From Candidatus Nomurabacteria bacterium (GTDB taxonomy: Bacteria > Patescibacteriota > Minisyncoccia > Phycocordibacterales > UBA5272): a stretch of 64,000 nt of DNA. The DNA lies in contig JBEIQD010000001.1 of assembly GCA_040376695.1 (NCBI GenBank), positions 217,029 through 281,028 of the forward strand, given 5' to 3'. A model generated the notes under the pieces. That model did no database searches. It saw only the letters and a program-made list of their open reading frames with translations, and was not told the origin of the DNA. A program made the position numbers and the translations under genes. Shown here in pieces: positions 19,010 through 60,626 of the stretch; the first letter of the stretch is position 1; every line of letters starts with the position of its first letter.

Positions 19010-19080
19010 AGCGGAGTAGAGTAGAGGTAACTCACGAGGCTCATAACCTCGGGACACCAGTTCGATTCTGGTCTCCGCAA
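19010..19080 (+). tRNA. tRNA-Met (anticodon CAT); possibly the initiator (1:72 positions appear unpaired)
   Basis: Cloverleaf: acceptor gcggag/ctccgc, T-arm accag-ttcgatt-ctggt, anticodon arm cgagg-ctcataa-cctcg. Confidence 0.8.
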
Positions 19081-19165
19081 CAAGTAAAACTACGTGACAT
19101 GGTTTAAGGTTTAAGCGCCGCCCACGTAGTTGTAGGCGGCGCTTAAACTATTGAAATAAGAATAT

Positions 19166-19239
19166 GTCAGTGTAGCTCAGTTGGTTAGAGCGTGGGACTC
19201 ATAAGCCCAAGGTCGGTGGATCGTTCCCACCCACTGACA
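19166..19239 (+). tRNA. tRNA with CAT anticodon (elongator Met or lysidine-modified Ile2)
   Basis: Acceptor gtcagtg/cactgac, D-arm gctc-agttggtta-gagc, anticodon loop ctcataa, T-arm ggtgg...ccacc. Confidence 0.7.
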
Positions 19240-19304
19240 CCCGTAGTAGACGGATTCTAGCTTTTTGCTAGAATGGATGAGACAAATAAATAGCGGTTAA
19301 ATAT

Positions 19305-19378
19305 GCGGTCGTAGCTCAGCTGGTTAGAGCACCGCCCTGTCACGGCGGGGGTCGTGGGTTCAAATCCCATCGACCGCG
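19305..19378 (+). tRNA. tRNA-Asp (GTC)
   Basis: Acceptor gcggtcg/cgaccgc, anticodon arm ccgcc-ctgtcac-ggcgg, T-arm gtggg-ttcaaat-cccat. Confidence 0.85.
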
Positions 19379-19386
19379 CAAAAAGA

Positions 19387-42649: not shown

Positions 42650-42736
42650 CGGAGAATGTGAGATTCGAACTCACGGACCTAATAAAAGGTCGACGGTTTA
42701 GTAAACCGTTGGTTTAAACCACTCACCCAATTCTCC
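42650..42736 (-). tRNA. Type-II (long variable arm) Ser-like tRNA whose anticodon reads ACT under the canonical fold (unusual)
   Basis: Minus-strand sequence ggagaat...acggt-ttactaa-accgt...gtgag-ttcgaat-ctcac-attctcc-g: 7-bp acceptor, long variable arm, discriminator G (Ser identity), anticodon loop TTACTAA. Confidence 0.6.
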
Positions 42737-42751
42737 ATATTGTTTTCTGTG

Positions 42752-42838
42752 CGGAGACGAGAGGATTCGAACCTCCGAGGGATTTAACTCCCTGCCTCTT
42801 TAGCAAAGAGGTACGTTAGACCACTCTGACACGTCTCC
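42752..42838 (-). tRNA. tRNA-Ser (GCT)
   Basis: Minus-strand ggagacg...cctct-ttgctaa-agagg, long variable arm cagggagttaaatccctcg, T-arm gaggttcgaatcctc, acceptor cgtctcc, discriminator G. Confidence 0.85.
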
Positions 42839-44930: not shown

Positions 44931-45002
44931 GGCCCTATCGTCTATCGGTTAGGACGTATCCTTCTCAAGGATAAAAGCAGAGTTCGACTCTCTGTAGGGT
45001 CA
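44931..45002 (+). tRNA. tRNA-Glu (CTC)
   Basis: Acceptor ggcccta/tagggtc, D-arm gtct...ggac, anticodon arm tatcc-ttctcaa-ggata, T-arm cagag-ttcgact-ctctg. Confidence 0.8.
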
Positions 45003-55065: not shown

Positions 55066-55137
55066 TGTCCTCGGCAGGAATCGAACCCACAATAACTCCT
55101 TAGGACGGAGCAGTTATATCCATTTAACTACGAGGAC
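55066..55137 (-). tRNA. tRNA-Arg (CCT)
   Basis: Minus-strand gtcctcg...gctcc-gtcctaa-ggagt...gtggg-ttcgatt-cctgc-cgaggac-a; followed by a hairpin at 55031..55065. Confidence 0.7.
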
Positions 55138-55588: not shown

Positions 55589-55664
55589 GCTTGGATAGCT
55601 CAGTTGGTAGAGCGCTTCCCTGAAGAGGAATAGGTCCCCAGTTCGAGCCTGGGTCCAAGCACCA
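55589..55664 (+). tRNA. tRNA-Phe (GAA), 3' CCA encoded
   Basis: Acceptor gcttgga/tccaagc, D-arm gctc-agttggta-gagc, anticodon loop ctgaaga, T-arm cccag-ttcgagc-ctggg, ACCA end. Confidence 0.8.
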
Positions 55665-58447: not shown

Positions 58448-59743
58448 TTACTGAGAAAGCTTCTTCTTTCTACTATAAAAGAACCCAAGTAGCAAGAGAT
58501 ACACCACACTTAAGACCCATGAACTTATAACAAGTGAAAACATACCCTGACCCATCTTAACTGCCGTAATGAGGGTTATAACACCAACGCTTGACGCAAT
58601 CAGGTTTGCATAAAAAAGACCCATAGTATCTTTCGATGCACTAAACGCACTCACAAAATATATATTGATAGCATACAGCGGCAAACTGAAAGCAAATAAT
58701 CCTGCCATACTAGAAATCTCTTTCCCTCGAGTAACATCTCCGTACAAAATACGCACGATAGGATCTTTACAAATAATAATTACTGCTGCAGCGAGAACTG
58801 ATATAGAAAAAATAGAAATAAGATTTATCTTAAGAATTTTTGTAAAATCCTTATGCTCACCCTGAGCGTGTTTATGTGCCAGCAAAGGAAGTGTTGCAGA
58901 AGCCGCACTCTGTACAACAACTTGTACGAATGCATCAATAATACGTTGTGCAAATAAATATACTGACAAGACACCAACCCCAATAGAGGTTGCCACAGCC
59001 ACAAAAATTAAATCTCGCACTCTTGAAACCACTGTAGAGAGCGATCGAGGTACAGCAACTCTCATATGAGACATAACATGTACCCAACTAAACATAGCTA
59101 GTGACAATTTCATTCTTGCTTCATATAAAGTATATGACTGTACAGCAAAACTAAGAATTGCCCCAACTACCACACCGCAAACAATTCCAATTACTCCGTA
59201 GCGTGGATACAGGAGCGGAATGGAAGCAATAATGGTAAGAGTGTAGATGAGTGGCGCAATACTGTATAAAACAAATCTATGTTTAATCTGAGCAAGTGAT
59301 GACACAAGCGCAGAAAGTCCGAGGAAAAGTGGCTGCACCATGAGAATAAGGGAACAGACAACAAAATAATGCCGCTGAAACTCATCAAATCCAGGAACAA
59401 TATATGGAGCGAGGAATGGCAAACATGCTGCCGCCACCAAAGAAAATGCTATTAAACTAAATCCAAAAAAGAAAAAGAGTGAGTTAAACTTCTTAGTAAT
59501 CTCCTCTTCATTTTCTTCTGCATGTTTAGTGATAAAAGGAACGACTGTTGCAGCCGATACTGCAGCAATTAATAAACCATAGACAAGATCAGGGATTCTA
59601 AACGCTGCATTATATACATCAAGCATTGGACCCACTCCTACAACTTGTGCAAGAAGACGGTCTCGAAAAATACCTAAGATAAGTGAGACTACACCGAAAA
59701 AAGCAAGAATTGCAGAGTTTCTAAGAATCATACGATATACCAA
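58448..59743 (-). CDS. murJ: Lipid II flippase MurJ/MviN family (short, 431 aa)
   Basis: N-terminus ...GIFRDRLLAQVVGVGPMLDVYNAAFRIPDLVYGLL... matches the MurJ Arg-rich N-terminal pattern; polytopic. Confidence 0.65.
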   Translation of the reverse strand: MVYRMILRNSAILAFFGVVSLILGIFRDRLLAQVVGVGPMLDVYNAAFRIPDLVYGLLIAAVSAATVVPFITKHAEENEEEITKKFNSLFFFFGFSLIAFSLVAAACLPFLAPYIVPGFDEFQRHYFVVCSLILMVQPLFLGLSALVSSLAQIKHRFVLYSIAPLIYTLTIIASIPLLYPRYGVIGIVCGVVVGAILSFAVQSYTLYEARMKLSLAMFSWVHVMSHMRVAVPRSLSTVVSRVRDLIFVAVATSIGVGVLSVYLFAQRIIDAFVQVVVQSAASATLPLLAHKHAQGEHKDFTKILKINLISIFSISVLAAAVIIICKDPIVRILYGDVTRGKEISSMAGLFAFSLPLYAINIYFVSAFSASKDTMGLFYANLIASSVGVITLITAVKMGQGMFSLVISSWVLSVVYLLLLGFFYSRKKKLSQ

Positions 59744-59756
59744 TTATACCATGAGA

Positions 59757-59787
59757 AAACACCGCCCTTGTGGGACGGTGTTTTCAT
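59757..59787 (-). terminator. Intrinsic terminator directly after the rnpB 3' end
   Basis: Minus strand aaaacaccgtcccacaagggcggtgttttc. Confidence 0.55.
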
Positions 59788-59789
59788 GT

Positions 59790-60070
59790 ATTCTTTGTCT
59801 ATAAGCCGAATTCTGTGTTTGTGTAGACATGTATCTAGGATGATAGTCACCCATCACCTCAAGCGACGCTCCTTTCAATTGCTCAAAAGGCACGGTCTTG
59901 CACACACGTATGTATTTAGCCGTTTCAGCCGAACTAAATCGGATCGTTTCTGTTCGCAACACGGTGGTCACCCACGACGGGCATTACCCGCTACGCTTAT
60001 CATGTAAACATGATGATGTGTTCGGACTTTCCTCACGATATTGCTATCGCGCGTCTACCCAACAAAGAAC
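59790..60070 (-). ncRNA. rnpB: RNase P RNA (M1 RNA), compact about 280-nt form; not in the ORF track
   Basis: Minus strand carries the universal 5' block cgtGAGGAAAGTCCGaac (plus 60020..60037) and the 3' block ACAGAAttCGGCTTAtag (plus 59799..59816). P1 pairing gttctttgt/acaaagaa (60062..60070 vs 59791..59798). Internal GGGTAATGCC and TGAAAGGAGCG blocks. An upstream TATACA-18-TAGTAT promoter-like sequence and a terminator hairpin right after. Confidence 0.78.
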
Positions 60071-60107
60071 CTACACATACTACAATGAAAAAACTATTCT
60101 GTATAGC

Positions 60108-60626
60108 TTATTCCCCTAGCACCACGTTCGTTCCAAGATATAATCCAAACTTCTCAGCAGAGCCTGCTTGGATCTCAAGTACATATTTTGCCTCTGGAGA
60201 ATTAATAAACGTCTGTGGCGGAACTTGGTTAAAATATGATTCAGGTGTCGCACTATGTACAACATGAACCACAACACCATCCTTATTTATCCAAACAATA
60301 TCAATTGGGAAAAGCATGTCTTTCATCCAAAATCCATATTTACCAGATTCCTCGAAAATGAAAAGCATTGCTTCATCTTCCTTAAGTCCCACTCTACCTG
60401 AAAGACCTTGCGCTCGTGAAGCTGGTGTATTCACCACCTCTGCGTATACTTTTCCTTTTGGAAGATTTATTTCCTTTCCGCTCCGTACAACCTTTTCAAC
60501 CATTGCCGACTTACACACCTTTTGATATCCGCATGTGTATCCGTAAGCAAGAACAATAAGTGAAACAAGTACGACGACGATAATTCTAAGTTTATTTTTA
60601 CGATTCAGAACAGTGAGTGTATTCAT
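60108..60626 (-). CDS. DUF192-domain protein (COG1430-like), membrane-anchored
   Basis: ASRAQGLSGR...MLFIFEESGKYGFWMKDMLFPIDIVWI matches the DUF192 core. Confidence 0.75.
   Translation of the reverse strand: MNTLTVLNRKNKLRIIVVVLVSLIVLAYGYTCGYQKVCKSAMVEKVVRSGKEINLPKGKVYAEVVNTPASRAQGLSGRVGLKEDEAMLFIFEESGKYGFWMKDMLFPIDIVWINKDGVVVHVVHSATPESYFNQVPPQTFINSPEAKYVLEIQAGSAEKFGLYLGTNVVLGE

Follow-up and report, generated by a model that had tools for sequence, protein, structure and literature searches.

The 64-kb stretch of DNA analysed here, which we call the window, carries on its minus strand a gene for a DUF192 protein and, downstream of it, murJ (Table 1). The gap between them measures 364 nt when counted to the TTG start of murJ and 376 nt when counted to the ATG at 59731; the latter, which is the one that relatives use, is likely the genuine start, and the MurJ homologues are 427 aa long with MILRNS as first residues. 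Within this gap lie, again on the minus strand, a promoter-like pair of hexamers, a gene recognised as rnpB, for a compact RNase P RNA, and an intrinsic terminator, all overlapped by four listed ORFs. The gene order typA-DUF192-rnpB-murJ-lepA is conserved among relatives.

When the whole window was scanned against Rfam at gathering thresholds, a single RNase P match was found, the remaining eight matches being all tRNAs. This match, to RF00010 (bacterial class A RNase P), runs from 60070 to 59786 on the minus strand with 115.7 bits (E 1.1e-34), covers model positions 1-367 of 367, and exceeds the gathering score of 100 by about 16 bits. Class A was kept when overlapping matches of the RNase P clan were made to compete, and no other RNase P family was retained. 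The Rfam comparison suggested in an earlier note on this DNA, which had claimed an RNase P RNA gene from the letters alone, thus bears that claim out; since the score lies above the Rfam cut-off, a standard pipeline would call the gene. Our own covariance model, R1, built from eight compact sequences and the hand-mapped structure, gives the window RNA 333.5 bits. The length, 285 nt for the Rfam match and 281 nt between the outer ends of P1 against a model of 367 positions, agrees with the earlier estimate of about 280 nt, shorter than typical type A RNAs. We are therefore highly confident, from sequence and comparison, that this locus is the organism's rnpB, which would be independently transcribed as an RNA of about 281 nt and act as the catalytic subunit of RNase P in removing the 5' leaders of pre-tRNAs.

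Table 1. Features of the rnpB locus and tRNA genes of the window (RNA position p is window coordinate 60071-p)
Feature	Window coordinates	Strand	RNA positions	Basis or remark
DUF192 protein gene, upstream neighbour	60108..60626	-		PF02643, E 1.1e-28
-35-like hexamer TATACA	60100..60105	-		Direct reading
-10-like hexamer TAGTAT	60077..60082	-		Direct reading; ends 6 nt before RNA position 1 (G60070)
rnpB (class A-derived, compact)	59786..60070	-		RF00010; P1-to-P1 core 60070..59790
P1	60061..60070 / 59790..59799	-	1-10 / 272-281	10/10 canonical
P2	60053..60058 / 59823..59828	-	13-18 / 243-248	Mapping
P3, short 7-bp hairpin, GCAA loop	60034..60051	-	20-37	Rfam alignment and mapping
Conserved block GAGGAAAGTCCG/GAGGAAAGUCCG, J3/4 and P4 5' strand, bulged U at 60026	60023..60034	-		Direct reading
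P4 pseudoknot	3' strand 59803..59809	-	42-49 / 262-268	Mapping
P5		-	51-54 / 167-170	Mapping
Extra J5/7 hairpin AUCAUG-UUUA-CAUGAU	59999..60014	-	57-72	Insertion relative to RF00010 consensus
S domain (P7-P11, J11/12 AACAGAAACGA, mini-P12, CUGAAAC; P13/P14 absent)	59906..59996	-		Rfam alignment
P7		-	75-79 / 161-165	Mapping
P8		-	80-94	Mapping
P9, GUGA loop		-	95-109	Mapping
P10		-	110-112 / 158-160	Mapping
P11, 2 invariant pairs		-	114-115 / 151-152	Mapping
J11/12 AACAGAAACGA(U), A-rich		-	117-128	Mapping
Mini-P12, 4-bp CCGA/UCGG, 6-nt loop UUUAGU	59929..59942	-	129-142	Mapping
CUGAAAC strand		-	143-149	Mapping
P15 (3 bp), internal loop, P16 with GCAA cap	59865..59897	-	174-206	Rfam alignment and mapping
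P18, 8 bp, GUGA tetraloop	59839..59858	-	213-232	Mapping
Conserved block ACAGAATTCGGCTTA/ACAGAAUUCGGCUUA, P4 3' strand	59802..59816	-		Direct reading
Intrinsic terminator, 13-bp hairpin (59785..59755), U run in 3' arm	59752..59785	-		Folding and conservation
Extended -10-like TGgTATAAT	59743..59751	-		TATAAT at 59748..59743
murJ, downstream neighbour	58448..59743	-		PF03023, E 7.6e-37
Listed ORF	59744..59971	-		Overlaps rnpB
Listed ORF	59768..60007	+		Overlaps rnpB
Listed ORF	59898..60119	+		Overlaps rnpB
Listed ORF	60010..60267	+		Overlaps rnpB
tRNA genes	19010-19379, 42650-42838, 44931-45002, 55066-55137, 55589-55661			Rfam

The helices were mapped from the Rfam alignment and by hand, and every helix pair of the proposed fold is canonical in the window sequence; the Rfam alignment of P10/P11 contains non-canonical pairs. 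Nothing of the universal catalytic core is missing: P1 to P5 are present, P4 forms its pseudoknot with a bulged U, and both conserved strands, GAGGAAAGUCCG and ACAGAAUUCGGCUUA, are in place. Both universal blocks of the RNA, already pointed out in the earlier note, are present on the minus strand, and its P1 helix indeed joins the two ends by 10 bp. In P4, the pairs from A42-U268 through A49-U262 are all canonical, U45 being bulged. Of the S domain, the portion with the tRNA T-loop docking region is likewise intact: P7 to P11, the CUGAAAC strand and the A-rich J11/12 are all there, and the invariant G-C pairs of P8 are preserved. When the sequence is folded by energy alone, P1, P2, P3, the J5/7 hairpin, P8, P9, P16 and P18 come out; the whole-RNA MFE z-score, -1.97, is modest.

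The predicted loss of peripheral helices holds as well: P13, P14, P17 and P6 have disappeared, P12 has shrunk to a stub of 4 bp and P3 is short, while P18, whose presence the earlier note had left to a manual fold together with that of P13 and P14, is retained. In the RF00010 alignment, the 43 model positions of the P13 and P14 block face 1 nt, the P15-P17 block has 24 nt against 43 in the model, and 11 model positions are deleted in the J2/4 region that contains the P6 strand. Only the 6 nt ACAAAC (59817..59822) separate the 3' block of P4 from P2, and the P6 strand and P19 are consequently absent. The GGU motif of L15, which pairs with the 3'-CCA of the tRNA, is not found in the internal loop of P15/P16, whose strands read CGUG and AGC. 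In the opposite direction, about 11 nt are inserted relative to the model in the interval from P5 to P7, where the extra hairpin lies. Its position is that of P5.1 in type B RNAs, a likeness by position only.

The mini-P12 module is constantly 15 nt long (YCCGG-UUAAGU-CCGG) over at least 120 metagenome contigs of 38-63% GC, with a conserved loop and a covarying stem. The stem occurs as CCGG/CCGG, CCGA/UCGG or CCUA/UAGG, and of the 81 sequences where the stub was recognised, 80 have the loop UU(A/U)A(G/A)U. This conservation suggests that the loop may take part in a specific contact. Derivation of the compact S domain by deletion from the full form of the relatives was considered and rejected, as the stub is not derivable from their P12-P14 sequence; the compact S domain would thus be a separate, older variant.

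Transcription signals frame the gene. The earlier note had read a promoter-like TATACA-18-TAGTAT upstream of the RNA; both hexamers stand, and the spacer is 17 nt rather than 18. In relatives the -35 is TTGACA, TGGACA or TAGACA, spaced as in the window. A -10-like hexamer (at least 4 of 6 matches to TATAAT) lies 3-6 nt before the RNA start, and a -35-like hexamer 16-18 nt above it, in all 29 genes compared (the window and 28 relatives), with hexamer scores that are optimistic because the best offset was chosen for each sequence. The constancy of this promoter geometry across the 29 genes is convincing. The terminator hairpin that had been claimed is found as well, with a ΔG of -22.5 kcal/mol and a z-score of -6.4 (none of 200 shuffles being as stable), and a comparable hairpin follows the 3' end of the RNA in 29/29 genes (ΔG from -17.6 to -29.1). 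Furthermore, promoter-like site and terminator recur in both orientations of the gene. A consensus promoter/terminator scanner flagged neither the promoter nor the terminator of rnpB, the former since the two hexamers together match only 8/12 positions and the latter since the U run is inside the extended stem.

Directly after the rnpB terminator we noticed an extended -10-like element on the same strand. Its TATAAT is separated from the murJ ATG by only 11 nt, so that the murJ mRNA would have no leader or a very short one. In relatives with a co-directional rnpB, TATAAT or TATACT stands at the matching place before murJ.

The MurJ homologues range in small steps from 94% to 37% identity. The names attached to MurJ relatives and syntenic genomes, where they have any, are Parcubacteria, Paceibacterota, Nomurabacteria or Patescibacteria, and from these names the organism is judged to be a Patescibacterium. 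A scan with a MurJ alignment, covering one genome per species, gave 51 loci (L001-L051), and an RNase P RNA lies directly upstream of murJ in about 45 of them. In the alignment of 46 syntenic relatives, standard pairs fill 95.2% of the cells, and sliding the partners by 1-3 columns lowers this share to 33-48%; 54 of the 76 pairs change on both sides, and the observed values were reached by none of 500 shuffles. A metagenome scan for the compact S-domain signature yielded at least 120 contigs, and each of the 80 loci taken from them (38-63% GC) holds a complete RNase P RNA; in 78 distinct sequences 95.3% of the cells are paired and 67/76 pairs covary, the pair counts of both sets being inflated by the fitting of the covariation alignments to their own model. 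This bias is partly offset by the slid controls and by folding the J5/7 segments one by one, both of which argue that the covariation signal is real.

The signal is spread over the molecule. The core helices P1, P2, P3, P5, P7, P8, P9 and P10 each have double-sided pair changes, which affect 10/10 pairs of P1 in relatives; in the 46 relatives and the 78 metagenome sequences they concern respectively 4/6 and 6/6 pairs of P2, and covariation in P3 reaches 6/7 and 7/7. All pairs covary in P16, in P18 (8/8) and in the J5/7 hairpin (6/6, with 88-90% of cells paired). The J5/7 segment, when each sequence is folded separately, forms a stem-loop in 36 of 40 relatives, and among the short J5/7 segments the stem is in matching register, flanked on either side by 2 unpaired nt. 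The P4 strands are invariant in well-aligned relatives, and the extension pair 50-261 changes from A-U to G-C in four of them. P11 never varies among relatives and is thus unsupported by covariation.

Seven of 20 relatives tested miss the RF00010 gathering score, so that such RNAs are easily missed in genomes of the CPR (Patescibacteria). Some metagenome relatives are even smaller than the window RNA: L107:1372-1622 (+) is only 251 nt long, yet its match spans the entire model; its P3 is minimal, and of P15/16 a 3-bp hairpin is left. It is smaller than the RNase P RNA of Mycoplasma fermentans, which has 276 nt.

Could the gene be a relic? The absence of several peripheral helices and of the CCA-binding motif would also fit a decaying rnpB in a cell where tRNA 5' processing falls to a gene outside the window, be it another copy of rnpB or one for a protein-only RNase P (HARP). 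Bacteria with both enzyme types exist (PMC9945441), and no rnpA was found in the 64-kb window with an RNR-motif regular expression in six frames, a weak test. However, the universally conserved core strands are all intact, promoter and terminator are conserved, and at least 78 distinct sequences, with GC contents from 38 to 63%, share the compact architecture and show compensatory changes in it. Since base pairing would be lost in a gene under decay, we consider a relic very improbable.

What kind of RNase P RNA is it? With class A (RF00010; E. coli M1 RNA, Thermotoga maritima RNA) the window RNA has in common P1 to P5 with the P4 pseudoknot, P7 to P11, P15-P16 and P18, and it shares the conserved strands of J3/4 and J11/12 and the GNRA loops on P9 and P18. 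It differs in lacking P13, P14, P17, P6 and the L15 GGU, in its 4-bp P12 and in its added J5/7 hairpin. The window RNA fails class A only on peripheral features known to be dispensable. P6, for instance, is known to have been lost several times independently (PMC12974513).

The window RNA also resembles class B (RF00011; Bacillus, Mycoplasma fermentans). Both lack P13, P14, P6 and P17 and have a helix between P5 and P7, and in size the window RNA is close to that of M. fermentans. In the 2010 helix-distribution table of PMC2858038, P5.1 is assigned to type B only. The J5/7 hairpin and the type B-like set of missing helices (PMC2858038) could thus be taken to place the RNA in type B or type C rather than class A. 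Yet the window RNA has neither P10.1, only UAAAU lying between the 3' strands of P11 and P10, nor P15.1 (named P18.0 in PMC12974513, and the partner of P5.1 in type B), only GCUUGA lying between P15 and P18. Moreover, its P15 continues into the P16 hairpin instead of being closed by a loop, its P18 is of the class A kind, and it scores as class A, which survives the Rfam clan competition. Type B membership was rejected on these grounds. Finally, close relatives with the same core retain P12, P13 and P14; one of them, L041, keeps these helices (31, 17 and 16 nt) in a common alignment with the window RNA. A type B or type C RNA is accordingly extremely improbable, and the relatives point to a reduced class A lineage. 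With archaeal type A RNAs the window RNA shares an S domain made of P7 to P12 only, without P13/P14 (PMC2858038). The archaeal RNAs, in contrast, have no P18, possess a long P12 and act together with several proteins, whereas the window RNA keeps P18 and has a minimal P12.

That the interval codes for one or more small proteins instead of an RNA can be practically dismissed: the four ORFs are open frames of 73-85 codons on both strands, but Pfam gives no match to any of them, the longest run without a stop in the sense frames, 79 codons here, shrinks to 44 in the closest relative and to 16-41 in several more, the substitutions track RNA pairing instead, and one of the ORFs overlaps the DUF192 gene in antisense. 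The earlier opinion that these ORFs are spurious and the gap non-coding is thereby upheld.

The window RNA, then, is a reduced class A RNA of a kind already reported for the small-genome Patescibacteria, and an ordinary housekeeping gene. Lui, Nielsen and Arkin 2021 (PMC8172020) describe, from circularised CPR genomes, diverged RNase P RNAs, many of them without P13, P14, P16 and P17, with a UGG motif (CCA-binding) absent in 23/35 and several scores below the Rfam thresholds. In the same paper the absence of P13/P14 is called 'not unusual', and it does not, therefore, exclude class A membership. The window RNA belongs to the same organism group as the RNAs of PMC8172020, shows the same types of loss and scores close to the Rfam cut-offs near or below which they fall; compared with them, it retains P12 (as a stub), P15, P16 and P18. 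The abstract, RNase P section and figure legends of that work make no mention of a J5/7 hairpin or of a conserved mini-P12 loop, and our literature search for the structure of Patescibacterial RNase P RNA found no description beyond that paper. The finding leaves our knowledge of RNase P itself unchanged. For annotation, it fills in a required housekeeping gene and removes four spurious ORFs, and it provides a clean, well-supported case of trimming in which the catalytic core and the tRNA-docking region are kept.

How might such a trimmed RNA work? As described in PMC12974513 and in the abstract of PMC8457005, L18 docks into P8 and links the two domains, P14, likewise docked into P8, serves as a brace for the S domain, the C domain is connected through P6 with the interdomain junction, and in Bacilli P5.1 paired with P15.1 replaced P6. 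In the mechanism that we propose, the L18-P8 and L9-P1 tertiary contacts would persist, the bracing of the S domain by P13/P14 would have been given up, and the P6 bridge dropped. The J5/7 hairpin, perhaps together with the GNRA-capped P16, may partly replace the P6/P16/P17 bridge, like P5.1 of type B. The enzyme, completed by an RnpA protein presumably encoded elsewhere in the genome, would recognise the acceptor stem and T arm of the pre-tRNA without pairing to the 3'-CCA. Such recognition would fit the tRNA genes of the window, only one of which, the tRNA-Phe gene (55589..55661), encodes CCA, the other seven of the eight lacking it; for these seven, the organism must depend on a CCA-adding enzyme.

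Among these tRNA genes, one of Ser type with a long variable arm (42650..42736, minus strand) has the anticodon loop UUACUAA and hence the anticodon ACU; A34 is unusual in bacteria outside tRNA-Arg. A normal tRNA-Ser(GCU) gene (42752..42838) precedes it at a distance of 15 nt.

In the 51 loci, the unit formed by promoter, rnpB and terminator occurs in either orientation at the same spot between the DUF192 gene and murJ, and even near-identical RNAs differ in this respect: those of the window and L001 are co-directional with murJ, those of L036, L040 and L033 opposite to it. Compact S domains, without P13/P14, and full ones are interspersed on the neighbour-joining trees of MurJ and LepA. There are, in addition, two variants of the C domain, one with P2 GUAGAC and without P19, the other with P2 GUAAUC and a P19-like hairpin, and all four combinations with the S-domain types occur. 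Indeed, L018, L032 and L003 combine the compact S domain with the P2 GUAAUC/P19-like variant, and L028 the full S domain with the P2 GUAGAC variant.

The interspersion on the trees and these combinations suggest replacement or recombination of rnpB or of its domains. The two trees carry no bootstrap support and conflict with each other, and we therefore withhold a firm evolutionary conclusion; mixed types and orientations could also have arisen through chimeric assembly of genome bins. The compact RNAs may represent a discrete architecture, in which a class A core is combined with a helix at the P5.1 position without P15.1 and with a fixed 15-nt mini-P12, and in which P13, P14, P17 and P6 are lacking. 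The joint reading, in which this architecture is discrete, undescribed and widespread in Patescibacteria and the gene behaves as an invertible or replaceable cassette, is a tentative one that we hold to be rather unlikely as a whole.

The rnpB genes of relatives are also the site of insertions. Palindromic segments of 60-150 nt are found at the tips of peripheral hairpins (J5/7, P13, P15/16 and the P19 site); the window's rnpB has none. They lie between P2 and P4 in L016, L014, L022 and L003, in the J5/7 hairpin in L014 and in P13 in L043, and further relatives with such insertions are L033, L020, L037, L003, L038, L044, L002 and L021. The ends CCAGCYCCAGUUUUG...CAAAACUGGGGCUGG are common to several of them, and GCUUCGCAUUAAGCGC is common to others. 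By their appearance the insertions would be MITE-like elements for which the loops of RNase P RNA are a repeated target. A larger insertion of about 400 nt occupies the P15/P16 hairpin of rnpB in L022:1102-1377 (-) and L014:283-447 (-), where it is flanked by the long inverted repeat CCAGCYCCAGUUUUAGG ... CCUAAAACUGGGGCUGG. It encodes, on the strand of the RNA, a GIY-YIG nuclease of 91 aa (PF01541, E 5.6e-17), truncated to 54 aa in the L014 copy, and has the look of a mobile element with a nuclease gene, lodged within the gene of an RNase P RNA.
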